Source: an uncultured bacterium (lineage in GTDB: Bacteria > Patescibacteriota > Minisyncoccia > Phycocordibacterales > GWA1-40-21). From it: 64,000 nt of DNA. Below, one piece after another: positions 2,883 through 60,967 of the stretch. The DNA lies in the NCBI GenBank assembly GCA_963798465.1, contig CAWCTC010000001.1, forward strand, positions 260,315-324,314. Reading direction: 5' to 3'. A program made the position numbers and the translations under genes. Position 1 is the stretch's first letter; each line of letters opens with the position of its first letter. The notes beneath the pieces are model-generated. The model searched no databases. It saw only the letters and a list, made by a program, of their open reading frames with translations, and was not told the origin of the DNA.

Positions 2883-2972
2883 GTTTTTCCCTCCTTTTTT
2901 TGAACTTTGTATTTCTGAATATAAGAGTATAGGAAGGGGAAATGGTTGTCAATCTGAATATTAATACAATTT

Positions 2973-2999
2973 AAAAACCACCTAAAAAGGTGGTTTTTA
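2973..2999. terminator. Stem-loop AAAAACCACC-N6-GGTGGTTTTT
   Basis: 10-nt inverted repeat with A/T runs in a non-coding stretch. May mark the left edge of the accessory region. Confidence 0.45.
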
Positions 3000-3262
3000 A
3001 AATGTGGACATAAGGCGTAAAACACTAAGTCAGCTAAAAGACTACCTCTTAAGGTTTTGGAACTACTATAATTCGAGTATAAATCTACAAAAAGCCCTTG
3101 AAAATGGCTGATATTTTGATCTAGAAAGGTACACAAATAGGGTATTTAATGGTTATTATTGGCTATAAAATGCTAAATTTGACATAAAAATGTCTAAAAA
3201 TAGACTTGACATATAATTTCACATAGACTATACTCTAATTATAACAATAATTTGTTAAAATT

Positions 3263-7616: not shown

Positions 7617-7812
7617 TTTACATTATATTTTTATATGATATAATACTGGTACAACTGAATAAGAAAGTAATCTAAACTAGTAAGTAATTACTGGCATGAT
7701 GAAAAGAAAGTCGTATAAGGCATAAAAAACCCATCATGGGGTCGCCTTATACGCTATATCGGGAAACTGGTATAAGTGGCTTCGGCCACTACCCGTGATG
7801 GGCTTTTTGTTT
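7617..7812 (+). promoter_or_regulatory. Promoter plus structured leader or small RNA with alternative pairings and a terminator-like end
   Basis: TTTACA (7617-7622), 16-nt spacer, then TGaTATAAT (7636-7644). Downstream, CGTATAAGGC (7712-7721) and GTATAAG (7771-7777) can each pair with GCCTTATACG (7744-7753). There is a GTGGC-TTCG-GCCAC hairpin (7778-7791). CCCATCATGGG (7730-7740) can pair with CCCGTGATGGG (7793-7803), which is followed by CTTTTTGTTT. Confidence 0.4.
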
Positions 7813-9360: not shown

Positions 9361-10971
9361 GTGTTCAATCTTGATAACTTTATGATTAAGACAAAAATTA
9401 AACAGAATAATCCAAATAACCCCTATGAAGAGAGGACGGGTCTTGTTTATGTCCGTGTATCAAGTAAACGACAGGAGACCCAAGGAACTGGTTTACAGAG
9501 CCAAGAGGGGCGTTGTATTAAGGAACTAGAGTTAATGAAAGTTCCATATAAAGAAACCTTTCCCGATAGTTATTCAGGCGGAGGTGATTTTATGCTAAGA
9601 CCAGCGATGAGAGATATGATCGCGTATATAGATGCACACCCATACGAAAAATTCATCGTAGTATTTGATGATATTTCACGCTTTGCCCGTGATGTCGTTT
9701 ATCACATTAAACTTAGAGAGGTGTTTAGATCTCGTGATGTAATGTTAAAGTGTTTGAATTATAGCTTTGATGAAAGCGATGAAGGTTGGTATTCAGAGTT
9801 AATTCTTTCAGGAAAGGCGGAGTTAGACAGAAGACAGAATCGTAGACAAGTCATACAAAAACAAAAATCACGCCTTGAATTAGGATACTGGTCATTTGCG
9901 TCTAGAAAGCCTTATAAGATGACTAAAGACCCATTGCATGGCAATATACTCAAATTACAATATCCAGAGGCAGGTTGGCTCAAGGAAGCAATGGAAGGAT
10001 TTGCGGATGGTAGATTTATTAGAAAAATTGATGCTTGCAAATTTCTTCTCAAGAAAGGCTATTGGAAAAAACAATCTGTAGAAAAATATATAGATAATTT
10101 TTCTCTTTTATGTAAAGACGCCTTATTTGCTGGATACATCGAATATCCTGAATGGGAAGTAGAGAGGCGAAAAGGACATCATGAAGCCCTTATATCACTT
10201 GAAACATATAATCTTATTCAAAAACGTTTAAGGAATGAGGGTCTAGGAAAAAGAATTCGTGTAGATATATCGAAAGATTTTCCACTTAGGGGTTTATCTC
10301 TTTGTGCATATTGTAGTAAGCCCCTCACTGGTGCTTGGTCAAAGGGCAGGAAACAAAAACATCCATATTATTTTTGTCAGAATAAAATTTGCTTATACAA
10401 AGGAAAAGCTATTCGTAAAAAAGATATAGAAGAGAGTTTTGATAATTTACTTAAAAAACAGATTCTTAAAGGAAAAGCAGAGGTAGTCCTGAAAAGAGTT
10501 TTTGATTCTGAATGGATGGAAGAAATATCTAACTTAGAACTCTCCCAACATACCCAAGTAAAAAATAAAAAAGATCTTGAAGACCAACTTAGTGAATTGG
10601 TAAAGTTGTCTACGCGGGCCAAAGATCAATCAATTCGAAATGCTTATGAAAGGGAGATGAGGGATGTATCAGATAAGATCATTCAAATTGAGGATGATTT
10701 TCTACCTAATTTTGATACTAAGGTTCCTTATCGAACGGCTCTTGATAAAGCTACAGGTTTATTGAAAAGTCCTTATAAAGTATGGAAGGATCTTGATGTG
10801 ATAGAGCAACATAGTCTATTCTATTTTATTTTTGACACAAAAATACCCTATGACATAAAAGAAGGCTATCGAACCGATAGTATTCCAACTGCCATAAGGC
10901 TTTTTGAGGAATTTGCGACTGCAAATTCCTGTGATGTGGAGATGGGCGGAATCGAACCGCCGTGCAAATGA
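9361..10971 (+). CDS. Large serine recombinase (resolvase/invertase N-domain + recombinase + zinc-ribbon domains)
   Basis: 536 aa. GLVYVRVSSKRQ catalytic-Ser motif, Cys cluster CAYCSKPLTG...YYFCQNKIC, C-terminal coiled-coil-like region. GTG start (alternative ATG at 9382). The last codons are antisense to the tmRNA 3' end. Confidence 0.9.
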   Translation: MFNLDNFMIKTKIKQNNPNNPYEERTGLVYVRVSSKRQETQGTGLQSQEGRCIKELELMKVPYKETFPDSYSGGGDFMLRPAMRDMIAYIDAHPYEKFIVVFDDISRFARDVVYHIKLREVFRSRDVMLKCLNYSFDESDEGWYSELILSGKAELDRRQNRRQVIQKQKSRLELGYWSFASRKPYKMTKDPLHGNILKLQYPEAGWLKEAMEGFADGRFIRKIDACKFLLKKGYWKKQSVEKYIDNFSLLCKDALFAGYIEYPEWEVERRKGHHEALISLETYNLIQKRLRNEGLGKRIRVDISKDFPLRGLSLCAYCSKPLTGAWSKGRKQKHPYYFCQNKICLYKGKAIRKKDIEESFDNLLKKQILKGKAEVVLKRVFDSEWMEEISNLELSQHTQVKNKKDLEDQLSELVKLSTRAKDQSIRNAYEREMRDVSDKIIQIEDDFLPNFDTKVPYRTALDKATGLLKSPYKVWKDLDVIEQHSLFYFIFDTKIPYDIKEGYRTDSIPTAIRLFEEFATANSCDVEMGGIEPPCK

Positions 10972-11341
10972 TTGTTCCAGATATTTCTACAAAGTTTAGT
11001 TGATTTTATTTTGTCTTGCGACAAATTTAAGATTATGAACTTTAAAAAAACAAAATATTCATAATCCGATTCTCTTATTTCATTTTGCGCCGAGAAATCG
11101 CAAAATATATTCTGAAAATATTACACTTCAGACCACCGCTCAGAATCAGTGGGTGAAATGTCGCTTAGGCTAAAGCGTAAGCGAAAGTAGGAGTTGACCT
11201 CCAAAAATGGAGAAACAATACTCGCTACTTTTTGTGAAATGTTATTAGCATTTACATTTTCCTTGATAGATTTAGGAGTTCACAAGGTTGCTCTACTTTG
11301 CATATAAGAAACGGGACCAATTGTCTAGGCCGATCATCCCC
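10937..11341 (-). ncRNA. ssrA: tmRNA (SsrA)
   Basis: 5' end GGGGATGATCGGCCTAGAC. 3' end GGCGGTTCGATTCCGCCCATCTCCA. The acceptor pairs GGGGATG with CATCTCC, including a G3-U wobble (Ala identity). An internal reading frame ..ACT TTC GCT TAC GCT TTA GCC TAA (T-F-A-Y-A-L-A-stop, 11165-11188) resembles canonical tags. smpB lies next door. CCA is not encoded. Confidence 0.85.
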
Positions 11342-16086: not shown

Positions 16087-16160
16087 TACGCCCGCCTAGA
16101 TTCGAACTAGGGACCCCGAAGGTATAAGCTTCGTGCTCTAACCAGCTGAGCTACGGGCGT
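16087..16160 (-). tRNA. tRNA-Ile (anticodon UAU)
   Basis: The reverse complement folds as ACGCCCG-TA-GCTC-AGCTGGTTA-GAGC-A-CGAAG-CTTATAC-CTTCG-GGGTC-CCTAG-TTCGAAT-CTAGG-CGGGCGT-A. The anticodon loop C-T-TAT-A-C gives UAU. CCA is not encoded. Confidence 0.8.
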
Positions 16161-16194: not shown

Positions 16195-16286
16195 GCAATT
16201 ATCAGCGACGTAGAGCGAGAGAAATTAAAAGTAATCTTTTAATTTCTGAGCCGAGGAGTCTGATATAAGAGCGAAGCTGCTTCTAT
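16195..16286 (+). repeat. Structured ~85-nt repeat, copy A (family with 46327-46424 and 46446-46512)
   Basis: ..ATCAG-CGACGTAGAGCGAGAG-AAATTAAAAG-TAAT-CTTTTAATTT-CTGAGCCGAGGAG-TCTGAT.. This copy overlaps the last ~20 codons and the stop of recG. Confidence 0.7.
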
Positions 16287-18448
16287 TCAAAATGTATTTC
16301 GTCCATTTTTCTATGCAGAAAGTTTTTCGTTTATCAAGAGGGAATTTTGAAAGAGTTTCATCTTGGGACAAAAAATATTCTGCTTCAGCTCGTGCGGCTT
16401 CCACCATTTTTAAATTTCTTATTGCTTCCATGCCGATATCAGAGATTCCCCATTGTTTGTTTCCGGAAAGTTCGCCTGGTCCACGAAGTTTCAAATCAAA
16501 TTCGGCAAGTTCAAAACCATTTGAAGAATTTTTAAATGCTTTGAGTCTAAGCAAAGTTTTTTCAGTTTTTGTTTCCGCAAAAACATAACAATATGCTTGA
16601 TGATTGCTTCTGATGACGCGTCCGCGAAGCTGGTGAAGCTGGGCGAGTCCAAATCTTTCCGCTCCTTCAATAATTATCACAGTTGCATTCGGAACATTTA
16701 CTCCGACTTCGACGACAGAAGTTGCGACAAGAATTTTTATTTTTCCGGATTTGAAATCATTCATCACTTTTTCTTTTTCGCCTTGCAGCATTTTGGAATG
16801 AAGAATTCCAATTTCATAATTTTGAAAAACATCTCGTTTCAATCTTTCAGCTTCTTCTTTTACGGACTTTGCAATAACAGCTTGTTCTTTTGCCGGATCG
16901 GGTTCATTTATTCTTGGACAAATCACATAAGCTTGTCTGCCTTCTGCCAGTAAATTTTTTATTTTTGTATAAGTATTTTCTCGTTCGTCCGGCAAAACAA
17001 TTTCGGTGATAATCGGTTTTCTTCCGAGAGGCATCTGATCAAGCAAAGTCAAATCCAAATCTCCGTAAATAGTTAGTGCTAAAGTGCGGGGAATCGGCGT
17101 TGCAGTCATCGAAAGAAGATGCGGATTCAACCCTTCTTTTCTTGTTATTTTTTGTCTTTGTGCAGTTCCGAAGCGATGCTGTTCATCGATTATAGAATAT
17201 GCCAAATGCTTGAATTTTACGGATTTTTGAATAAGCGCATGCGTTCCGATAAGAATCGGAATTTCGCCATTTGCAACCCATTTCAAAAGCTGAGTCTTGG
17301 AAATTTTGGTCCATTCTTTTGGATTTGTTTTTGAAGGAAATTTTCTGCATTCTTTTCCGGTGATGAGTCCAACATTTATTTTTAAGTAAGTAAAATATTC
17401 TATGAAAGATTCAAAATGCTGTTTTGCCAGAATTTCAGTCGGTGCCATATAAGCGACTTGAAGATTTCCGAAATTTTGTCCTTTTGGTTTTGAAGTGATG
17501 ATTGCAAATGCAGTTGCTGCAGCGACTGCTGTTTTTCCTGAACCGACATCTCCTTCAAGCAGACGCGACATTGCATGTCCGCTTCTGAAATCGATCATTA
17601 TTTGTTCAATGGCTTTATTTTGCGCTTCTGTCGGTGCGAATGGAAATCTTTCAACGAACTGCTCGATATCTTTCGGAGTTTTTTCAATAACATAAGAAGG
17701 ATTTTTATTCCAAAGAATTTTATCTCTTTTTTTCTGCAAGTTGAATGAAAAAAACTTCCTCAAATGCGAATCTTTTTCTTGCAGAAATCGCATCGCTCTT
17801 GTTTTTGCGGAGTGTGAATCCAGACAAGCGCGGTTTTTAAAGTCGGAAGATTGTAGGTTGTCCAGAATATATTCCGGAATCGGATCTTTTATATTGTCCA
17901 AAATTCCTGAACTGAAAATCTTTTTGTATTGCATGATAAAACCAATTTGAAGTGATGCCTTGGCTTTCCGGATAAACAGGATAAAGAGAATGAGCCTCGC
18001 CGTCTTCTCCAAAAAGAGAATCGCCGACGCCGATCGGTAGCTTTACGATCGTTTCTATTTTCGGATTTGATAAATAAAGTTCGCCGCGTCTGTCAGAAAC
18101 TTTTCCGTCGGCTCGGACAAAAGCATCTTCATGAATCATTTTTGCAATGTACGGCTGATGGAACCAAACAGCTTTTATTTTTCCGGATTCATCTTCAATC
18201 CAAGCTTCGGACATCGGAATTTTGCTTTTGAAACCTTTGCTTGTTTTAAGTTTCGTGATTTTTCCAAAGATTACGGCGCTTTCTCCTTCAATCAAGCTGC
18301 CGATATTTTTTTTCTCGGAAGTGTCGCCATATCTGACGGGGAAATGATAAAGCAAATCGCCCACGGTTTTAATACCGAGCTTTTTCAAGGCTATTTTCTG
18401 CGATTCCTGCAGGCGGAAATTGTTTTCAATCTGTGAATTCAAATCCAT
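16225..18448 (-). pseudogene. recG: ATP-dependent DNA helicase RecG, split by one extra base in an A5 run (possibly an artefact)
   Basis: ORF 17837-18448 encodes the wedge domain. ORF 16225-18012 encodes the helicase core (GDVGSGKT, IIDEQHRFG, QLHQLRGRVIR). The frames meet at CAAAAAG on the coding strand (T-run 17921-17925). With A4 the reading is ..WFYHAIQKIFSSGILDN.. Confidence 0.92.
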
Positions 18449-18587
18449 TTACCCGAGAAAATTTTTGCCAATAAAAATTGTTTGTTGCGACTTTTTCATA
18501 ACGGTATTATATCACGGTCATCTATTTATATGATTTTTGCTTGTTAAGTCAATTTTTAACAAACGTTGGCAAAAACTTTAGCGGGTG
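18449..18587 (-). mobile_element. ORF-less derivative (MITE-like) of the GIY-YIG cassette, copy 4, abutting the recG start
   Basis: Reads on the minus strand as CACCCGCTAAAGTTTTTGCCAACG ... GTGATATAAT ... TTATTGGCAAAAATTTTCTCGGGTAA-ATG(recG). Near-identical along its length to the copy at 60161-60301. Confidence 0.7.
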
Positions 18588-18629
18588 AATTGTAGCAAAA
18601 ATAGGCGGAATTTTCGCGGAAAGACAATT

Positions 18630-21994: not shown

Positions 21995-23516
21995 ATTTTG
22001 CGAAAAAGCAAGTAATTACAACGTTTTTTTTATTTTTTTAAAAAACGTATATTTTTCCTATCTAAAACGGAAAAAATCATTGCGTTGTCATAATTATTGT
22101 TCTATAATTGGGTTTGTAAAAGAGTTGCGCAGTTTAGAAGTACAGCTGGTTTTTTTGTTAGGGAATATATAGTCCGTTTAAAATGTACGCATACAATTTT
22201 TTAAAAAAACAGTCTTTTTAGGGCTATGTTCAGTAGCGCTGTTATTTTGCTTTTCGGTGACGAATGTTTTTGCTGCAGGAGTTCCTACTATTTTGAGTTT
22301 TCAAGGAAGGCTTACGGATTCTTCCGGCAATCTTTTAGGAGGTTCAGGAACAAATTATTATTTTAAATTTTCCATCTGGAATAACTCGACTATCGGTTTA
22401 GGGTCACAGCTTTGGCCTGCAGTCGCTCCGTCAGTTTTTTCTACGGCAGTACGACAAGGAGTTTTTAATGTAAATATCGGAGACACTTCAGCGGGATATC
22501 CCGATGTCTTGGATTATAATTTCAATACGAGTGTTCCAGTTTATTTGCAGATAGAAGTTTCTTCCGATGGAATAAATTTCCAAACTCTCGGTCCGAGACA
22601 AGAAATCACGGCATCCGCATTCGCCCAATTATCCGGAGCTGTGAGTGGAACGGGACAATCTTCTTTCGGAACAACGACTCCGATAAATAATTCCGTTGTC
22701 AGTATAGTTTCAACTTCAACAAATTCCACTGCGCTTACGATAAGAGGCTTGGTCGGACAAATTGCAAATCTTTTTCAGGTTCAAAATTCTTCGGGTGCGA
22801 ATGTATTTTCAATCGATAATAACGGTTCAATAATTTCGAGTGGAACAATTGTTGCAACAAATATTTCCGGGACTTCAACTGGAATAAATACCGGCGACGA
22901 ATCTTCATCATCAATCAGAACAAAACTCGGAGCCGCATCATCGACAAATGACGGATATCTTTCAGCAGGAGATTGGACGAATTTCAACAGCAAAGTTTCA
23001 GGAACAGGGAATACTGGCGAACTTTCATATTGGACTGACTCAAACACCTTGGCAAGTATCGGCCCTGGAATTGACGGAATGTTTTTGAGAGCTTCATCAA
23101 CTTCTCCAACAGGTTTTGATTGGACTTTAGCAAGCAGCAGTGGAGGTTCTGGCGTTTGGGGAGCAATTACAGGAACTCTTTCAAATCAAACAGATTTACA
23201 AAATGCCCTTGATGCAAAACTTTCCACGACTTCAGCGGCGGCAATTTATTTGAGTCAAATTTCAGCATCATCGACTTATGTTTCTTTTGATTATGCAACA
23301 AATACTTTTGCGACAATTTCTTCTCTCGGCTCATATGCCACAACCGGAGCACTTTCAAATTATTACTTGGCTTCAAATCCATCAAACTACATTTCAAATA
23401 TTTCCGGACAGAATCTTGCAACCGCCGACAATTCAATTTCCGGCTTCATCACCGCAACTGCTCTCATTCCATATCTTTCCACCACATCCGCCGCTTCAAC
23501 ATATCTTCCTCTTTCA

Positions 23517-25406
23517 GCTTCAACATCTCTTGCATATATTCCTCTCGCATCAAGTTCAATCTTCCTTTCAACAACTTCCGCATCAGCCCTATATGTTTCC
23601 ACTTCATCTCTTGCAAGCACTCTGCTCGGATATCTTTCAACAACATCGGCATCAGCAAATTACGTTTCAACTTCATCTCTGACTTCAACTCTCGCTTCAT
23701 ATCTGACTACTGCATCTTCAACTGCGACATATCTCACGATCCTATCCGCCGCTTCAACATATCTTCCTCTTTCAGCTTCAACATCTCTTGCATATATTCC
23801 ATTTGCATCTTCATCTTTGTATTTATTGAATAGCGCTTCAACATCTCTTGCATATATTCCTCTCGCATCAAGTTCAATCTTCCTTTCAACAACTTCCGCA
23901 TCAGCCCTATATGTTTCCACTTCATCTCTTGCAAGCACTCTGCTCGGATATCTTTCAACAACATCGGCATCAGCAAATTACGTTTCAACTTCATCTCTGA
24001 CTTCAACTCTCGCTTCATATCTGACTACTGCATCTTCAACTGCGACATATCTCACGATCCTATCCGCCGCTTCAACATATCTTCCTCTTTCAGCTTCAAC
24101 ATCTCTTGCATATATTCCATTTGCATCTTCATCTTTGTATTTATTGAATAGCGCTTCAACATCTCTTGCATATATTCCTCTCGCATCAAGTTCAATCTTC
24201 CTTTCAACAACTTCCGCATCAGCCCTATATGTTTCCACTTCATCTCTTGCAAGCACTCTGCTCGGATATCTTTCAACAACATCGGCATCAGCAAATTACG
24301 TTTCAACTTCATCTCTGACTTCAACTCTCGCTTCATATCTGACTACTGCATCTTCAACTGCGACATATCTCACGATCCTATCCGCCGCTTCAACATATCT
24401 TCCTCTTTCAGCTTCAACATCTCTTGCATATATTCCATTTGCATCTTCATCTTTGTATTTATTGAATAGCGCTTCAACATCTCTTGCATATATTCCTCTC
24501 GCATCAAGTTCAATCTTCCTTTCAACAACTTCCGCATCAGCCCTATATGTTTCCACTTCATCTCTTGCAAGCACTCTGCTCGGATATCTTTCAACAACAT
24601 CGGCATCAGCAAATTACGTTTCAACTTCATCTCTGACTTCAACTCTCGCTTCATATCTGACTACTGCATCTTCAACTGCGACATATCTCACGATCCTATC
24701 CGCCGCTTCAACATATCTTCCTCTTTCAGCTTCAACATCTCTTGCATATATTCCATTTGCATCTTCATCTTTGTATTTATTGAATAGCGCTTCAACATCT
24801 CTTGCATATATTCCTCTCGCATCAAGTTCAATCTTCCTTTCAACAACTTCCGCATCAGCCCTATATGTTTCCACTTCATCTCTTGCAAGCACTCTGCTCG
24901 GATATCTTTCAACAACATCGGCATCAGCAAATTACGTTTCAACTTCATCTCTGACTTCAACTCTCGCTTCATATCTGACTACTGCATCTTCAACTGCGAC
25001 ATATCTCACGATCCTATCCGCCGCTTCAACATATCTTCCTCTTTCAGCTTCAACATCTCTTGCATATATTCCATTTGCATCTTCATCTTTGTATTTATTG
25101 AATAGCGCTTCAACATCTCTTGCATATATTCCTCTCGCATCAAGTTCAATCTTCCTTTCAACAACTTCCGCATCAGCCCTATATGTTTCCACTTCATCTC
25201 TTGCAAGCACTCTGCTCGGATATCTTTCAACAACATCGGCATCAGCAAATTACGTTTCAACTTCATCTCTGACTTCAACTCTCGCTTCATATCTGACTAC
25301 TGCATCTTCAACTGCGACATATCTCACGATCCTATCCGCCGCTTCAACATATCTTCCTCTTTCAGCTTCAACATCTCTTGCATATATTCCATTTGCATCT
25401 TCATCT
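23517..25406 (+). repeat. Tandem repeat, 318-bp unit x ~5.9, apparently 100% identical, in-frame (106 aa)
   Basis: Unit starts fall at 23517, 23835, 24153, 24471, 24789 and 25107. The identical antisense shadow ORFs spaced 318 nt apart in the ORF track confirm perfect identity. Confidence 0.95.
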
Positions 25407-25965
25407 CTCTACTATCTCAACTCAAACCCAGCAGGCTATATCACTTCCACTTCAACTGCATTCATTCCATTTGCATCAAGTTCTCTTTATCTTCTAAATT
25501 CAGCCAGCACAAGTTTGGCATATATTCCGATAGCATCTTCTTCATTATTTGCAACTTCGGGAACACTTTTGAGCTATATGACTTACAGTTATGCTTCTTC
25601 CACCTATGCAAGCACGACTTATGTCAATAATACATTTTTGAAATTATCTGCTTCAACATCTCTTGCTTATATTCCATTTGCATCTTCATCTCTCTACTAT
25701 CTCAACTCAAACCCAGCAGGCTATATCACTTCCACTTCAACTGCATTCATTCCATTTGCATCAAGTTCTCTTTATCTTCTAAATTCAGCCAGCACAAGTT
25801 TGGCATATATTCCGATAGCATCTTCTTCATTATTTGCAACTTCGGGAACACTTTTGAGCTATATGACTTACAGTTATGCTTCTTCCACCTATGCAAGCAC
25901 GACTTATGTCAATAATACATTTTTGAAATTATCTGCTTCAACATCTCTTGCTTATATTCCATCGG
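25366..25965 (+). repeat. Tandem repeat, 285-bp unit x ~2 (95 aa) inside the giant gene
   Basis: TCATCTCTCTACTATCTCAACTCAAACCC recurs at 25401 and 25686. The protein segment ASTSLAYIPFASSSLYYLNSNPAGYITS...NNTFLKLS is duplicated. Confidence 0.9.
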
Positions 25966-28469
25966 CCAGCTCGTCTTTGTATCTTTTAGTTTCTGCTAGC
26001 ACTTCATTGCCTTATATTCCTTTCGCTTCTTCAAGTTTGTATGCAACAGGAACAAACTACTGGTCTGCAAATGGAAATAATATTTATAATAATAATATAG
26101 GAACTGTTGGCATCGGAACTACAACGGCATCTGATTTGCTAGGCATTGAAGGTGGTGGCTTAGGTATTTATGCTCCTAGCACTAATGCAGCAAAATTTGC
26201 TGGAAATATAGAACCTGGCGATGGCGACCTTCTTGTAACTACCGGCAGGTCTTTAACCATTATGTCAAATGTCAATAGTTCAATCACTCCTGTTTTTGAA
26301 GCCAGTGTTACAGGCGGTGTATCTATTGGTTCGTATGTGAATAGTGTAAATATGTATTCTGTGCCAGCAAATAGTCTTATCCTTCCTGGAAGCATCGGTA
26401 TAGGAACTTCAACTCCTTCGCAAGCTCTGACAGTTATTGGAAATATTGCTTTGTCAGGAGCGATTTTTGACAGCACGAACGCTTCGGGAACTGCGGGAAT
26501 GGTTTTATCTAGCACTGGAACATCTACTTTGTGGATTCCTGCGCCATCAGGTTCATCCCAGTGGACAACAAATGGAACTTCAATTTATTATAATGGGGGG
26601 AAATGTCGGAATAGGAACAACAACACCCATAGCAGCTTTGGCTATTGCTAGCGCAACTGATACCCCATATGTTCTTGCAGTATACGGAGGCAATGGAAGT
26701 TCAACAGCAGGAAGTTCAGTTATTATGAATACTGGCAACGGCGGTCAAGTCGGTTTAGTCGGAGCACCCGGTGGAAATTTCTCATTCACAACCGGAATCG
26801 GAGGTTCTGCCGTCTCAGGCGAATCATCTGGTGCAAATGGAGGTGATTTTCTAGTTACAACAGCTGCTGGAGGTAATTCAACAGGACATCAAGCAGGTGG
26901 ACGAGGAGGCAACATGACAATTTTACTTGGCAATGGAGGTACTGGTTATGGCGGAGGAATCGGAGGATCATACTCAGTTACTGCAGGCAATGGTAATACT
27001 GGAACTTCCAATGGAGCTGGTGGAAGTATAAATCTTATCGCAGGAAATTCTCCTGGCGGAATTTCTGGCAATATAGTTTTGACTCCAGGCAATAATGGAA
27101 CAAATGCAACCGGCAGCGTAATAATTTCAACTCTGGCAGGACTCGGCAGTGTCGTCACACTCGGAGCAAATGGAGCTCTTACCGCTATTTCTTCAACCTC
27201 ACTATCAAGCTTATATGTAAGTCCAAGCCATGTGGATAATCTTGCGTATAGATATAACACTATTCCTTTGAATCAATCCGTCACAAATATTTCTATTATA
27301 TCTACCACTACTGTTGCACAGGTTGCAAACTACGGAGCATGGGACGGCCAACATTTATGGGTATCACAATTTGCTGCACATTCAATTACAGAACTGAATG
27401 AAAATGGAGTTGTCATGGCCACTTATACTTTTGCAAGCAGTATTGAACCAATTCAGTTGGCATACGATGGAAGATATATTTGGGTAGCCAGCGCGGATAC
27501 ATATGGAAATTTGATAAAGTTCGATCCAACAACAGGAGCTTCATCTACGACTCTTATGAATCCAGGAGGCACAGGCTCTGGCGGTATCCAAGGAATTCTT
27601 TGGGATGGAAGCAAATTGTGGATAGGTCTTGCAGCTTTGAATGATGTTTTGAGATTTAATACTATAACTGGATCAGTTGAGGCAACATCCACAGGAGATA
27701 CAAACGTAAACGGTTTGGCCATGATGGATATTCCTGAAAACGGAGGAGTGACAAGATATATTTTTGCGGCTTGTTCTAACTTCATAGCAAAAATAAAGGG
27801 AAGCACCATGGTCTCATCACTTATTGGTACTCCATCAAACACATACCGTATAGCGACAGACGGAGATTTTCTTTATGGAGCTTCTTATTTGGCAAGTTCA
27901 ACAGATGCAACTGTAGAAAAATATGATGCAAGAAGCGGTACAAAAATTGTAAGTTGGAATTCCGGAACTCTTCTGAACACAATTGCATTTGATGGAAGAT
28001 ATATCTGGGTATCGGGAGATGATCAAACCACAACCGTTCATGACAGAACTTCAGGAGCTATTGTTGCATCTATTCCAAATAGCGGAAAATCCGATCTTAT
28101 TTTTGATGGTACATATATGTGGAGTATTAGCAGTGCGGGCTTTGTGAGGAAATTAGGTATCGGTGAACAAATGGGCAATTTAAAAGTTGCACAGGGCATG
28201 AGTTTGATGGATGAGAACAATAATGTAGGACTCCTTCTCTTGGCAACTTCTACCGGTAGTAGCTATATGATGAGTAATTTTGGAATTGGGACAACTTCGC
28301 CGACCGCACCTCTCACTGTTACAAATTCGACAACGACTGGCGTGCTAGTTTCCATTTCTTCTCCGAATGCTCTGGCCACAACAGGCAGTTTGCTTTCTTT
28401 GGCGGCAGATGGCGCGACGACTCCAACAGGTGTTATGACTTTGAGCGCGAATGGTTTAACTTCTGGAAA

Positions 28470-43507: not shown

Positions 43508-43610
43508 CCCGTTAAAAATTCAGACCAAGCCAAATATGAAAATAGAATCAAATTAGAAAGTTAAAAATAAAAGTCGCAATAAATTATTAATATTAAAATT
43601 TTGTACTGGG
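43508..43610 (+). repeat. Possible degenerate fifth copy of the GIY-YIG cassette ends, abutting the pilT start
   Basis: CCCGTTAAAAATTCAGACCAAGCCAAAT at the left and AAAATTTTGTACTGGG-ATG at the right resemble the CCCGTTAAAGTTTTTGCCAAT / AAAATTTTCTCGGGTAAAC-ATG ends. The similarity is weak. Confidence 0.3.
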
Positions 43611-44672
43611 ATGGATTACAAAAATGAACTCAGTGATTTGATAAAGACAGTTTTTCAGGAAGGAGCTTCCGATCTGCATTTGTCTGAAGGAAAGAAACCC
43701 ACGATAAGAGTTTCAGGAATGCTTTTGCCTTTGGTCAAACGGGATGTAATCGGCAAAGAAATGATAATCGGAATTCTTTCGGAACTTGTAACCAAGGAAA
43801 ACAGAGAATACTTTTTGAAAAACAAAGAGCTAGATTTTTCATACGGCATGGACAATGGCGAGAGATTCAGAGGTAATGCGTATTTTCAGCAGGGAATGAT
43901 AAGCATCGCACTGAGACTTATTCCTAAAAATATCAGAGGACTCTCTGAGCTCAATCTTCCGGATGTTCTTAAATCTTTTACGGACAAGCCGCAAGGTTTT
44001 TTCTTAGTTGTCGGTCCAGTTGGACATGGAAAAACCACGACACTCGCAGCCATGATAGAAAACATAAATGAAACCAGAGCTGAACATATAATTACAATCG
44101 AGGATCCTATAGAATATATTTACGAACCGAAAAAATCTATCATAGATCAAAGAGAAGTCAGAACAGATACCGAAGATTTCGGAACAGCTATGAAAAGCAT
44201 GTTCAGAGAAGATGTAAACGTCGCACTCATCGGCGAGATGAGAGGATATGAGACGATTGCCACTGCCGTCACCGCAGCTGAAACGGGACATTTGGTTTTT
44301 TCGACTCTTCACACAAACGGTGCTGCGCAGACTGTCAGCAGAATTATAGATTCATTCCCAGCGGAACAGCAAGGACAGATAAGAATACAGCTTGCCGGAA
44401 GCTTGACTGGAATTTTTTCACAGAGGCTTATTCCAAGAATTTCCGGAGGATTGATTCCAGCATATGAACTTTTGATAAATAATAATGCAGTTTCAAATCT
44501 TATAAGAGAAAACAGAATACATGAAATAAGTTCCGTGATAGAAACATCTTCTCAAGAAGGAATGATAGACATGAATAGATGTCTGGCGGAAATGGTTCAA
44601 AGAGGAGAAATTACCGTTGAGAGCGCGTATCTTTACGCTACGGATTCGAAGATTTTGGAAAAAATGATGTAA
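43611..44672 (+). CDS. pilT: Twitching-motility (retraction) ATPase PilT
   Basis: 353 aa. GASDLHL, Walker A GPVGHGKTTT, IITIEDPIEY, GEMRG, TGHLVFSTLHTN. Confidence 0.93.
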   Translation: MDYKNELSDLIKTVFQEGASDLHLSEGKKPTIRVSGMLLPLVKRDVIGKEMIIGILSELVTKENREYFLKNKELDFSYGMDNGERFRGNAYFQQGMISIALRLIPKNIRGLSELNLPDVLKSFTDKPQGFFLVVGPVGHGKTTTLAAMIENINETRAEHIITIEDPIEYIYEPKKSIIDQREVRTDTEDFGTAMKSMFREDVNVALIGEMRGYETIATAVTAAETGHLVFSTLHTNGAAQTVSRIIDSFPAEQQGQIRIQLAGSLTGIFSQRLIPRISGGLIPAYELLINNNAVSNLIRENRIHEISSVIETSSQEGMIDMNRCLAEMVQRGEITVESAYLYATDSKILEKMM

Positions 44673-44882
44673 CACCCGTTAAAGTTTTTGCCAATGTATT
44701 GTGCAAGTGAGTGAGAATAAAAATTAGTGATAAAGATAATTATTTAAGATATAATATAAGCACAATACTAAAAAAGTTGTTATAATATTGAAAAATTTTA
44801 CAAAATGACCAAGTATCTTAGACAAAGTAATATGGAGAAAGTCGCCCATAACTTTTTTATTGGCAAAAATTTTCTCGGGTAA
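44673..44882 (+). mobile_element. ORF-less derivative of the GIY-YIG cassette, copy 1, exactly filling the pilT-pilC gap
   Basis: Begins directly after the pilT stop with CACCCGTTAAAGTTTTTGCCAATG and ends TTATTGGCAAAAATTTTCTCGGGTAA-ATG(pilC). The interior keeps a decayed ORF start (ATTGTGCAAG versus ATTATGCAAT) and a TGTTATAAT box. Confidence 0.7.
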
Positions 44883-46545: not shown

Positions 46546-46971
46546 ATGAAAATGAAAAAAGGTTTTACATTGATCGAACTTTTGGTGGTTATCGCCATCA
46601 TCGGTATTCTTTCATCAGTCGTTTTGGCTTCTCTAAACTCAGCAAGATCAAAAGGTGCAGATGCCGCAGTCCAATCAGGATTGAGCAACTTCCAAGCTCA
46701 AGCAGCTTTGTATTATAATAATGGTCAGACATATGGTACGTCTGCAGATTGTACTACAGGGGGAGTATTTATAGATCCACAAGGCGCAAGTATCATTGCA
46801 AATGTTAAATCAAATGCAAGCGGACAAAGTATTACATGTAATGCTGCCAGTACGACGTATGCCGTTGTAGCAAAATTATCAACAGCAGGAAGTTATTGGT
46901 GTGTAGATAGCAACGGTAATACCGGTGCTACAGCCTCTTCAACAATTGCTTCAGACGGCCTTTGTAAGTAA
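46546..46971 (+). CDS. pilA: Type IV pilin (probable major pilin)
   Basis: 141 aa. Class III signal MKMKKG|FTLIELLVVIAIIGILSSVVLASL, with Cys residues near the C-terminus (CVDSNG...GLCK). Confidence 0.88.
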   Translation: MKMKKGFTLIELLVVIAIIGILSSVVLASLNSARSKGADAAVQSGLSNFQAQAALYYNNGQTYGTSADCTTGGVFIDPQGASIIANVKSNASGQSITCNAASTTYAVVAKLSTAGSYWCVDSNGNTGATASSTIASDGLCK

Positions 46972-47021: not shown

Positions 47022-47262
47022 TTTCTTTCCCAGAACCCCGCCCGAAGCATCCCCTAGATAAGGGCATTTTCAGAACTTTGGAGGGCGGGGGTTAGAAAGT
47101 ACTACCATGTTCACTAAACGTGATTTATATATATTCATGAGAATTAGTAATTAAATAGTATTCTCATGCTTTAAAAGGAAACCCCGGGCGCAGCGTAGCG
47201 GAGCCCGGGGAGGAGGTCATTGTCTAAAAACATTTTCTTTTTGTTTTAAAAAAGTTATAATT

Positions 47263-47562
47263 AATCCGTTAAAGTTTTTGCTAACGCATTATGCAATATC
47301 TATATGTATTACAAAGTAAGAAAAATGGCGAATTATATACAGGTTGTACCAAAGATATAAAAAATAGATTAATATTGCATAATGCCAAAAAAGTTACGTC
47401 GACGAAAAAAAGCGCGCCATTTGCACTTATATACTATGAAGCTTACATAAATAGCAAAGACGCGTATAATAGAGAAAAATATATGAAAACACAATATGGT
47501 AGAAATTATATCAAAAAGGTCCTAAGTAACTTTTTTATTAGCAAAAATTTTCTCGGATAAAC
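47263..47562 (+). mobile_element. GIY-YIG cassette, ORF-bearing copy (copy 2), abutting the start of the second pilin gene
   Basis: Left end AATCCGTTAAAGTTTTTGCTAACG, right end TTATTAGCAAAAATTTTCTCGGATAAAC-ATG. Two substitutions in the left arm (C to T twice) are matched by G to A changes in the right arm relative to copies 1, 3 and 4. Confidence 0.7.
47291..47560 (+). CDS. GIY-YIG nuclease-family protein (short, UPF0213/YhbQ-like)
   Basis: 89 aa. YLYVLQS..GELYTGCT.DIKNRL..H... then YYE and N..REK..K, matching the GIY-(x10)-YxG, R and E/N motif order. Confidence 0.85.
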   Translation: MQYLYVLQSKKNGELYTGCTKDIKNRLILHNAKKVTSTKKSAPFALIYYEAYINSKDAYNREKYMKTQYGRNYIKKVLSNFFISKNFLG

Positions 47563-48114
47563 ATGAATATTTCCAGCAAATCAAAAGGTTTTACTCTCAT
47601 TGAAATAATCGTTGTCATCGGCATCATGGCGGTTCTCACAGCCATTATTTATTCTTCATTTGATTCATCAAGAGCGACGAGCAGAGACCAAAAAAGAGTT
47701 TCCGATATCAGCGCGATTCAGCTTGCACTTGAACAATATTTTCAGCAGAATGGAGTTTATCCGATGCAGTTGGCCAGCCTTGTTCCAACTTATATTGCTG
47801 CAATACCCACTCCTCCAACCAATAGTGAATCTTCTTATCAAGAAAATTATTTTCCTATGGCAAAAGTTCCTGGACCAGACAACTCACATTCTTGCGTGTC
47901 GTATCAATTATGGACTAAATTCGAATTAAATAATTCATATTTAAATTCAAAAAAGGGTTTTGATTCAACTCGCGTTGCAGATCCAAAAGGTTTGAAAACT
48001 TTCGATGGTTTTTATGAATGTGTTTCTCTTGGGAATAATCATTATGGAGCGCAAATAGATGCAGACCCAACAACTAATTCTGCAGCCAAATTAATCTACG
48101 ACGTAATGCCATAA
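47563..48114 (+). CDS. Type IV pilin-like protein
   Basis: 183 aa. KSKG|FTLIEIIVVIGIMAVLTAIIYSSF prepilin signal. Confidence 0.85.
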   Translation: MNISSKSKGFTLIEIIVVIGIMAVLTAIIYSSFDSSRATSRDQKRVSDISAIQLALEQYFQQNGVYPMQLASLVPTYIAAIPTPPTNSESSYQENYFPMAKVPGPDNSHSCVSYQLWTKFELNNSYLNSKKGFDSTRVADPKGLKTFDGFYECVSLGNNHYGAQIDADPTTNSAAKLIYDVMP

Positions 48115-60144: not shown

Positions 60145-60160
60145 TTTAAGTGATATAATT

Positions 60161-60301
60161 CACCCGTTAAAGTTTTTGCCAATGTTTGTTAAAAATTGTC
60201 TAAATAATTAAAGTCTTAATTTTAACGATTGTGATATAATACAGTTGTATGATAAAGTCGAAACAAACAATTTTTATTGGCAAAAATTTTCTCGGGTAAA
60301 C
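60161..60301 (+). mobile_element. ORF-less derivative of the GIY-YIG cassette, copy 3, abutting the start at 60302
   Basis: CACCCGTTAAAGTTTTTGCCAATG ... GTGATATAAT ... TTATTGGCAAAAATTTTCTCGGGTAAAC-ATG. Colinear with copy 4. Confidence 0.7.
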
Positions 60302-60967
60302 ATGTCTGCTGAATTTAAAAAACCATCATCTAGCGAATCTACTTCATTTTTTAGCGGTTTGGGAGCTTTTGAAATATTCATTGGCGGAGTGATTGTTTTC
60401 GGTCTTATTGTTGAAGCAATCAATCATGCTTCTTATTTTTATAATAAATGGTCGGCTTTTTTTAAGGCAGTGCCTTATTATCTTATAAATGCTTTTGCGA
60501 ACTACGCAGTTTTTGCTTTCTTTTTGTCCATAGTTTTATTCATCCTCCTTATTGTTTATATAATAAGAGAACAGGAAATAAGAAAAAAATTAATGAGCAG
60601 AGTCCTTCCGAAAGGTGGCGAAGTGGAATCAAAGCCGGAAGATTCAGTCATAGAAAATCCAAAATGGAAACTTGTCGAGGATCATATAGATTCTGAAGAT
60701 GCGAATAAATGGAAGCTTGCAATAATCGAAGCCGATATAATTTTGAGCGAACTTTTAGACAGTCTGCATCTGCCTGGAGAAGGTGTTGGTGAAAAATTAA
60801 AAAGCGTGGAACAAAGTGATTTCAATCACATAGAAGAAGCTTGGGAAGCTCACAAAATAAGAAATGCGATTGCTCATCAGGGCTCGGATTTTTTACTTAC
60901 ACAAAGAGAAGCGAAAAGAGTTGTAAGATTATACAAATCTGTTTTTGAAGAATTTGGAATAATTTGA
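60302..60967 (+). CDS. Membrane-anchored hypothetical protein with C-terminal Rx4H-containing helical domain
   Basis: 222 aa from ATG 60302 (the 60245 TTG extension lies inside the repeat element). Three TM segments, then ..WKLAIIEADIILSELL...EEAWEAHKIRNAIAHQG.., which includes R-N-A-I-A-H. Confidence 0.55.
   Translation: MSAEFKKPSSSESTSFFSGLGAFEIFIGGVIVFGLIVEAINHASYFYNKWSAFFKAVPYYLINAFANYAVFAFFLSIVLFILLIVYIIREQEIRKKLMSRVLPKGGEVESKPEDSVIENPKWKLVEDHIDSEDANKWKLAIIEADIILSELLDSLHLPGEGVGEKLKSVEQSDFNHIEEAWEAHKIRNAIAHQGSDFLLTQREAKRVVRLYKSVFEEFGII

Follow-up and report, generated by a model that had tools for sequence, protein, structure and literature searches.

Why does a gene for an 89-amino-acid (aa) GIY-YIG nuclease lie between a promoter-like box and the start codon of a pilin gene in an uncultured bacterium of the Patescibacteriota, and why do stretches with the same ends, but lacking this gene, lie flush against the start codons of other genes in the same DNA? 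The question is raised by a 64,000-nucleotide (nt) stretch of contig CAWCTC010000001.1 (GenBank assembly GCA_963798465.1, positions 260,315 to 324,314 of the forward strand), hereafter called the window, in which the nuclease gene is framed by inverted-repeat arms and forms the full-length version of a repeated cassette. Copies of this cassette recur in front of start codons in many genomes, and orthologous sites occur in filled and empty states. With a probability that we put at roughly 55%, they represent a family of mobile, selfish nuclease cassettes with nonautonomous derivatives, spread through Paceibacterota and related Patescibacteria.

A cassette family in front of start codons

The window contains four copies of the element, all of which share covarying arms of ∼22 nt at their ends. 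The original prediction had described these four copies and their inverted repeats, and its coordinates proved right within 1 to 2 nt. Arm-motif searches of the window with up to 3 mismatches returned 7 and 8 matches, compared to 0.07 and 0.01 in shuffled sequences, and a profile search of the window yielded no copies beyond the four. The copies and their immediate surroundings are listed below; ORF stands for open reading frame, and P2 and P3 are helices that lie inside the stem (P1) formed by the two arms.

47264–47560, plus strand: full-length, ORF-bearing cassette of 297 base pairs (bp); left arm 47264–47285, right arm 47537–47560, ending in the TAA of the ORF; P2 strands 47286–47299 and 47372–47385; P3 strands 47387–47397 and 47526–47536
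47291–47560, plus strand: GIY-YIG nuclease ORF, 89 aa, with its ATG within helix P2
47255–47261, plus strand: −10-like box of the host, TTATAAT (consensus match only), directly 5' of the cassette
47563–48114, plus strand: host pilin gene with an N_methyl motif, whose ATG lies 2 nt past the cassette TAA
44674–44882, plus strand: ORF-less copy of 209 bp (middle class) between the pilT stop codon (44670–44672) and the pilC ATG (44883); left arm 44674–44695, right arm 44859–44882; internal TGTTATAAT at 44778–44786; P2 44696–44704 and 44760–44768; P3 44770–44778 and 44850–44858
60162–60299, plus strand: short hairpin copy of 138 bp (subfamily B1), host ATG at 60302; left arm 60162–60183, right arm 60276–60299; internal TGATATAAT at 60232–60240; stem extended by pairing of GTTTGTT (60184–60190) with AACAAAC (60262–60268)
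60151–60159, plus strand: extended −10 box just 5' of the preceding copy
18449–18586, minus strand: short hairpin copy of 138 bp (subfamily B1) before recG (ATG 18448–18446); left arm 18565–18586, right arm 18449–18472; internal TGATATAAT at 18506–18514
18589–18597, minus strand: TGCTACAAT, just 5' of the recG copy
43508–43610, plus strand: possible decayed relic (weak), with a CTGGG end directly before the pilT ATG (43611)

As had been proposed, the right arms end 0 to 2 nt before an ATG. The distance from the TAA is 0 nt for recG (wedge domain) and pilC (T2SSF domain), and 2 nt for the pilin gene and for the gene at 60302, which encodes 221 aa of no assigned function. The pilC copy fills the entire gap between pilT and pilC, since the pilT stop codon ends 1 nt before the left arm and the right arm meets the ATG. 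An ortholog of recG (in L062; labels of this form denote sequences compared with the window) has the same element together with the same upstream flank. The stretch at 43508–43610 had been put forward as a possible fifth copy. It shares CCCGTTAAA and AAAGTCGCAATAAA and ends in AAAATTTTGTACTGGG directly followed by ATG; since it was missed by an nhmmer profile of the short copies, it is at best a decayed relic. Decayed right ends resembling it precede other genes in L078 and L101.

Outside the window, species-representative genomes were scanned for the right arm. At least 106 stretches were found in at least 19 species-level metagenome-assembled genomes (MAGs) of Patescibacteria, with 1 to 15 copies each, which bears out the earlier suggestion of a repeated family. 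Among the matches listed, an ATG-led ORF of at least 80 aa began at exactly 0 nt from 70 of the 113 distinct right arms and within 0 to 5 nt from 96 of them (85%), in the orientation of the element, whereas only 1.8% of all TAA sites in the same DNA precede such an ORF. A left arm was recovered for almost all of these 113 right arms. The genes behind the elements belong to 114 Pfam families (e.g., murJ, comM, trmD, priA, pilB/C, recG, recO, parB, and ddl). They therefore form no regulon, and a regulon leader was rejected on these grounds.

Both junctions were informative. On the right, TAA and ATG were fused and never overlapped, and the second codons of the host genes were ordinary, with a usage equal to that of controls, which led us to reject a cotransfer of the first host codons. 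On the left, upstream genes often stopped on a TAA inside the arm (ACC CGT TAA) or at its edge. Where an insertion followed a stop codon, a few nucleotides to the left of ACCCG traveled along (...ATTC), T being conserved to 90% at position −2 and to 80% at position −3. An in-frame ATG was present in only ∼40% of the ORF-less copies; translational coupling through a mini-ORF that ends at the TAA is therefore not a general rule. One start codon can be preceded by more than one unit: on the minus strand of L101 (3115–3870), four units are arranged head to tail with 0-nt junctions before a single ATG, and units 2 and 3 have swapped their right arms. In L018 (1145–1207), two right arms lie 15 nt apart, each followed by an ATG.

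The copies fall into three size classes, for which the counts again refer to the matches listed. The majority measure 130 to 143 bp (72 distinct copies), 26 measure 147 to 240 bp, and 11 distinct copies elsewhere repeat the architecture of the full-length cassette, with exactly 297 bp and an intact ORF. A complete unit reads (TT-A/C-)ACCCG...CGGGTAA. The longest copy had 391 bp, and no ORF other than the GIY-YIG gene was seen between the arms of the 113 copies. That the ORF-less copies are related to the coding one, as predicted, is evident from the middle class, which retains pieces of the ORF: GCATAATGC-AAAAAAGTT corresponds to the codons for LHNAKKV, and AACTTTTTT to those for NFF. The short class consists of one long hairpin and comprises two subfamilies. 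Of the 38 copies of B1 (ATTGGC arms), 20 contain an internal TGnTATAAT box ∼58 nt from the end of the element. In B2 (ATCAGY arms), there is no internal box; instead, the left arm begins exactly 2 nt behind a −10 box of the host promoter in 22 of 26 copies. The internal boxes that had been noticed in the three ORF-less window copies do exist at 44778–44786, 60232–60240, and 18506–18514, but among the short subfamilies this trait is restricted to B1 and cannot be generalized. All promoter and −10 assignments given here are consensus matches.

Two observations concern the carriers of such elements. In L022 (∼2930–3011), 3 nt separate the end of a member of another GIY-YIG subfamily (...KSYLTG*) from the ATG of a gene that bears a short B1 element in L096, so that the same start codon is used by different cassette families. 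Elements were also present in L026, L051, and L078 (JAGVNG01 contigs), which belong to a MAG labeled "Nanoarchaeota archaeon DeMMO3_40." Its element-adjacent genes share 86 to 94% protein identity with those of element-bearing MAGs (L075, L069, and L041/L103), and the bin is therefore probably mislabeled or contaminated.

The nuclease and the three-helix fold

The ORF at 47291–47560 matched the Pfam family GIY-YIG (PF01541) with 53.1 bits (cutoff, 22.6; E value, 4e-14). More than 160 homologs of ∼89 aa with 55 to 94% identity were found in Patescibacteria MAGs, and in every homolog context fetched, a gene on the same strand starts 0 to 7 nt past the GIY-YIG ORF. The neighboring genes included one after ftsK, pheS, dnaJ, and others, and the arms in these contexts displayed further compensatory changes. 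Y3, Y5, Y16, G18, R26, H30, E50, R61, and E62 were invariant in 33 homologs. For the 11 distinct ORFs, the median ratio of nonsynonymous to synonymous substitution rates (dN/dS) was 0.095 at a dS of ∼1.1, which indicates purifying selection on the encoded protein. An AlphaFold2 model (mean confidence score pLDDT, 92) predicted a single domain with a three-stranded sheet and helices. In a Foldseek search with this model, the UPF0213 protein BH0048 (1zg2) ranked first, Slx1 structures (7cq2, 6seh, and 4xm5) were among ranks 1 to 10, and I-TevI followed at rank 11. A profile of the nuclease compared with the PDB gave E values of 6.7e-7 for 1zg2 and 1.6e-4 for 1ywl, with Slx1 marginal, and the NCBIfam model for group I intron endonucleases reached only 21 bits (cutoff, 56). 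By sequence and modeled fold, the protein is thus assigned to the UPF0213/YhbQ-Slx1 branch rather than to the I-TevI or UvrC branches. It shares the GIY-YIG core residues with UPF0213/YhbQ proteins (1zg2 and 1ywl) and with the Slx1 domain, its best matches in sequence and fold, yet at an identity of only 20 to 28%. Slx1 has an additional zinc-finger domain and requires Slx4. Mobile behavior or terminal repeats of UPF0213 genes were not described in the searchable literature. Membership in a defense system was rejected: PADLOC returned no match, and the sole PHROG match was a weak one to a GIY-YIG homing endonuclease.

Protein and arms are encoded by the same nucleotides. The C terminus of the nuclease (residues 80 to 89, about the last 8 codons) and its stop codon are the translated right arm, and the variable right-arm sites are synonymous sites of the C-terminal sequence FFISKNFLG. 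The arms covary at five positions. In the ORF-bearing window copy, TCCG/CGGA and GCTAA/TTAGC replace the CCCG/CGGG and GCCAA/TTGGC pairs of the other copies; these compensatory changes, together with the covariation, uphold the earlier claim that complementarity of the arms is under selection. In all four window copies, the resulting stem P1 comprises an A-U pair and 4 bp, a 2-by-2 internal loop, and 14 to 15 bp with a fixed G·U pair, and the fold z-scores of these copies range from −4.4 to −6.3.

Beyond the arms, two helices are common to the middle class and the full copies, namely, P2, formed by GCATTATGC and GCATAATGC, and P3, formed by AAAAAAGTTA and TAACTTTTTT. With P1, P2, and P3 specified, 95.2% of cells were paired, compared to 43 to 53% with slid partners; the covariation score was 0.256, versus at most 0.08, and the observed value was reached by none of 500 shuffles. 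Double changes occurred in all nine P2 pairs. P2 covered the start codon of the nuclease in 14 of 14 ORF copies examined, its partner being the codons for LHNA, and was preserved through compensating synonymous changes (CAA/TTG to CAG/CTG). The sequence ATTGTGCAAG in the pilC copy, which had been interpreted as a decayed start, is real, but it represents one strand of this conserved hairpin and is not merely a degenerate start. The same architecture with other arm sequences was found in 84- to 87-aa subfamilies, including a marine one, and there, too, P2 was maintained by synonymous changes that compensate each other. G·U intermediates exceeded A·C intermediates (22 versus 5, with the two fixed positions excluded), and the sense strand was predicted to be more stable than the antisense strand in 62 of 72 short and 21 of 26 middle-class copies; these two asymmetries place the predicted fold on the sense strand. 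At the three-way junction, there is hardly any conserved core that is unpaired. A scan with Rfam 15, including hits with E values up to 5, returned only noise on the elements (MIR812; E value, 3.6), and a known RNA family or self-cleaving ribozyme was rejected on this basis. A group I intron carrying a GIY-YIG endonuclease was likewise rejected, as no ribozyme core was matched in Rfam and the copies lie outside coding regions, before an ATG.

Another 89-aa GIY-YIG subfamily (MPYFVYIL...) is represented in L117 (2725–2994), where the ORF follows smpB, with no start codon flush against it. A 17-bp inverted repeat (CCCTACTTTGTTTATAT and ATATAAACAAAGTAGGG) is made up of the first and last codons of this ORF. 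Since the ends of this ORF pair as well, end pairing may be general among such mini-nuclease genes.

Filled and empty alleles

At the pilin site, the cassette is present in the window, L119, L120, and L122 and absent from L049 (sister genome bog_1341) and contig L121; the locus thus carries an optional nuclease ORF, as homing genes do. The upstream flank of the empty alleles is identical up to TTATAATT, followed by GTCCC-ATG, i.e., the same TTATAAT box is succeeded directly by TGTCCC and the start codon. A metagenome scan with the flank of this site retrieved two contigs, one of them empty and the other filled but ending before the right junction. Across all loci, 45 orthologous start regions without an intact element were collected, of which 40 were truly empty and 5 held decayed elements. 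Eighteen of the 45 had a −10 box 5 to 10 nt before the ATG, 7 closely followed an upstream stop codon, and 15 had other leaders. Unfilled sites thus often read TATAAT-N6-7-ATG, a leaderless-type arrangement. Because orthologous sites differ in the presence of the element, the copies cannot be dismissed as an ordinary conserved leader.

The expectation of a clean insertion did not hold. Filled alleles lack the native stretch that leads from the −10 box (or from a point upstream) to the ATG, so that between 5 to 9 nt and up to ∼60 nt were lost in every pair. No consistent repeat of TAA, TA, or ATG as a target-site duplication was found in the filled and empty pairs. A target duplication in the style of miniature inverted-repeat transposable elements (MITEs) was therefore rejected: native nucleotides are lost, not duplicated. 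In the pilC orthologs of L096 and L098, a native leader of ∼60 nt takes the place of the element (∼2110–2188 and ∼2840–2916, respectively). It contains repeated ATTCGTAA(Y)CATTCGTAA(Y)ATTCGCATAA motifs and may be a native regulatory leader.

Different subtypes occur at the same host gene in different genomes. In 27 orthologous pairs, an element precedes the same gene in different species, sometimes as a different subtype.

Further features of the window were noted. Upstream of the filled pilin site, ∼197 bp (47024–47220) are absent from the otherwise collinear L049, L121, and L122. They lie between the terminator of another pilin gene (46546–46971) and the cassette promoter and contain GC-rich hairpins (AACCCCGCCC..GGGCGGGGGTT and CCCCGGGC..GCCCGGGG) within an AT-rich genome, with no Rfam match; this is a second, unrelated insertion/deletion polymorphism. 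The recG gene behind the minus-strand copy (16225–18448) is split into two overlapping ORFs, a wedge domain of 203 aa (17837–18448) and a helicase of 595 aa (16225–18012). Its ortholog in L062 is a single 735-aa ORF, and the split could reflect a frameshift, a pseudogene, or an assembly error. The window also encodes a LOOT RNA motif (7669–7790, plus strand; 80 bits), a transfer-messenger RNA (10934–11341, minus strand; 110 bits), and five tRNAs (at 16087, 20845, 61054, 61225, and 61502). In a 1,464-aa ORF (22257–26651, plus strand), antisense ORFs recur every 318 nt (23660–25290), from which internal tandem repeats of ∼106 aa are deduced.

Mechanism, rival explanations, and meaning

If the copies are selfish nuclease cassettes, each would take up position just 5' of a start codon, in the orientation of the gene, and replace the stretch between the −10 box or upstream gene end and the ATG. 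P1 would pair both ends and thereby leave the host ATG at the foot of the helix, P2 would bury the start codon of the nuclease, and P3 would close the rest. Of the 46 long ORFs in the window, only 2 have a Shine-Dalgarno-like motif in front of them, and 12 have a −10 box 4 to 10 nt upstream. In such a genome, which lacks Shine-Dalgarno sequences and has many leaderless genes, the fold would plausibly hold expression of the nuclease low and make the host AUG the first accessible one. Spread would be initiated by the nuclease and completed by host recombination or repair, which would copy the cassette into the broken start region rather than transpose it by cut and paste. We infer such repair copying because no target duplication is seen, the native spacer is lost, the same genes are hit repeatedly, and the left junction is variable. 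Forms without the gene may have been mobilized in trans or may have arisen by decay in place.

The free-standing GIY-YIG genes of T-even phages (Seg and Mob, relatives of I-TevI) provide a close precedent. They are small, lie between host genes in the same orientation with flush stop and start codons, and are optional between relatives; their start region is buried in a hairpin, and spread by break and repair is assumed. The cassette resembles them in all of these respects, including the presumed mode of spread. In contrast to the phage genes, it encodes only 89 aa with no DNA-binding domain, and its product is nearer to UPF0213/Slx1 than to I-TevI. It is found at dozens of unrelated chromosomal loci in a genome instead of at one cognate site, and it has covarying arms and abundant ORF-less derivatives.

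Several points weigh against a selfish, mobile cassette. The protein consists of a single catalytic domain of 89 aa, in which no long-target DNA-binding module like that of I-TevI or Seg was found by which it could locate start regions. Simple microhomology repair does not account for so exact a right junction, at which TAA and ATG never overlap and behind which the second host codons are ordinary. Interiors at different loci are only ∼70% identical (maximum, 90%); movement must therefore be rare or old, and a recent burst was rejected. Old copies that different species have in common are numerous, and domestication would explain this sharing just as well. Covariation extends to the outer four P1 pairs, although the predicted transcript of B2 starts at arm position 5, so that an account of P1 at the RNA level only is incomplete. 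Finally, the census required an exact right-arm match including the TAA and is therefore biased toward intact copies.

More tentatively, the cassette could be an autonomous element of a new class and, at ∼300 bp, the smallest known. An Slx1-like nuclease would read the three-way fold of its own sense strand and insert or copy the element precisely at transcription and translation starts, perhaps via a circle with abutted ends, and would thereby turn leaderless genes into leadered ones across Patescibacteria. The hybrid tandem units of L101 could have resulted from such an abutted-end circular intermediate.

It is possible, but on balance unlikely, that the copies serve the host as promoter or leader modules, kept for transcription of the downstream gene, for mRNA stability, or for Shine-Dalgarno-independent initiation at the foot of P1, with the ORF as a remnant of a first spread. 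In the 27 orthologous pairs, identity was 0.91 for the left arm, 0.73 for the interior, and 0.68 for the upstream 40 nt, compared to 0.54 at third codon positions of the host genes; these figures speak for such a service but are too high, as the collection was confined to copies whose right arm matched exactly. The −10 boxes behind which B2 copies lie and those inside B1 copies, the scarcity of Shine-Dalgarno motifs, and the covariation of the helices even in ORF-less copies point in the same direction. On the other hand, some 40 orthologs function without the element, the host genes form no regulon, the ORF is under strong purifying selection, and decayed relics occur.

We are more doubtful still of a site-specific insertion through a folded single-stranded or circular intermediate, in which the nuclease would cut the base of the sense-strand fold, the ends would circularize, and the circle would enter beside an ATG or transcription start. 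The lack of a target duplication is in line with this scheme, as are the strand-specific fold with its conserved G·T and internal loop, the covariation of outer P1 pairs where transcription is not expected, and the Slx1-like fold of the nuclease; units 2 and 3 of L101 look as if a circle had recombined into a resident copy. IS200/IS605 elements, REP/RAYT systems, and integron attC sites are recognized as folded single strands with imperfect hairpins and conserved mismatches, and they generate no target duplication. The cassette family likewise combines a strand-specific, imperfect hairpin, in which structure is kept over sequence, with the absence of a duplication, and the head-to-tail array of L101 adds to the likeness. 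Unlike IS200/IS605 elements, it encodes a hydrolytic GIY-YIG enzyme, and its ends pair across the whole element instead of forming separate subterminal hairpins. Among the matches listed, no HUH (Y1) TnpA or integrase accompanied the elements, the GIY-YIG gene being their sole ORF. GIY-YIG enzymes act by hydrolysis of DNA, and strand transfer is not known from them. Moreover, simple insertion would retain the native spacer, which is gone in every pair, the circular form is backed by one array only, and no ligase or recombinase partner was seen beside the copies.

Bacterial MITEs include Correia elements of Neisseria (CREE/NEMIS), RUP, ERIC, and BOX, which are repeats of 100 to 200 bp with terminal inverted repeats and occur in multiple copies near genes. 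Such MITEs contain promoter-like boxes, and when transcribed, their hairpins can influence the mRNA downstream. Insertion of a Correia element duplicates a TA target and occurs in either orientation, and no coding partner is known for these elements. Like them, the noncoding short and middle classes described here are multicopy, lie near genes, end in inverted repeats, and carry promoter-like boxes. They differ from Correia elements by the absence of a duplication, a fixed orientation and distance to the ATG, the replacement of the leader, and a coding form with the same ends, which encodes a nuclease that is not known as a transposase; the two groups were linked by neither sequence resemblance nor an Rfam match. 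It is improbable that the copies are ordinary MITEs that depend for their movement on an unrelated transposase encoded elsewhere, with the GIY-YIG ORF as a passenger: short copies do outnumber coding ones, and several MAGs have short but no full copy among the matches listed, but these MAGs are fragmentary and incompletely sampled, no other ORF was found between the arms, the arms overlap the end of the ORF, P2 and P3 consist of codons of this ORF, more distant GIY-YIG subfamilies come with coevolved arms of their own, and no target duplication exists.

Taken singly, the components are of familiar types: MITE-like repeats and a free-standing homing nuclease gene. Their combination, i.e., flush placement at start codons, leader replacement, a shared covarying fold of three helices, and a coding unit of 300 bp, is not described in the searchable literature. 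No description of the family was found in full-text articles, with most subscription journals outside the search, and there is no corresponding Rfam 15 family. In PMC12455944, a GIY-YIG gene is merely listed among transferred genes.

If the copies are indeed selfish cassettes, they would illustrate how selfish DNA can persist in highly compact genomes, namely, by settling in the handful of nucleotides that separate a promoter from a start codon and folding aside. Many of the repeated intergenic sequences in these MAGs, and of the small genes annotated as "GIY-YIG nuclease family protein," would also be accounted for. The stand-alone nuclease of 89 aa deserves attention, as what it targets may be a structure, of DNA or RNA, and not a sequence. 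Their gain and loss from strain to strain would also make the copies useful as markers in population genomics. Finally, the filled and empty sites provide natural allele pairs, leaderless versus equipped with a structured leader of ∼140 to 300 nt, for the study of Shine-Dalgarno-independent translation and mRNA processing in uncultured Patescibacteria.

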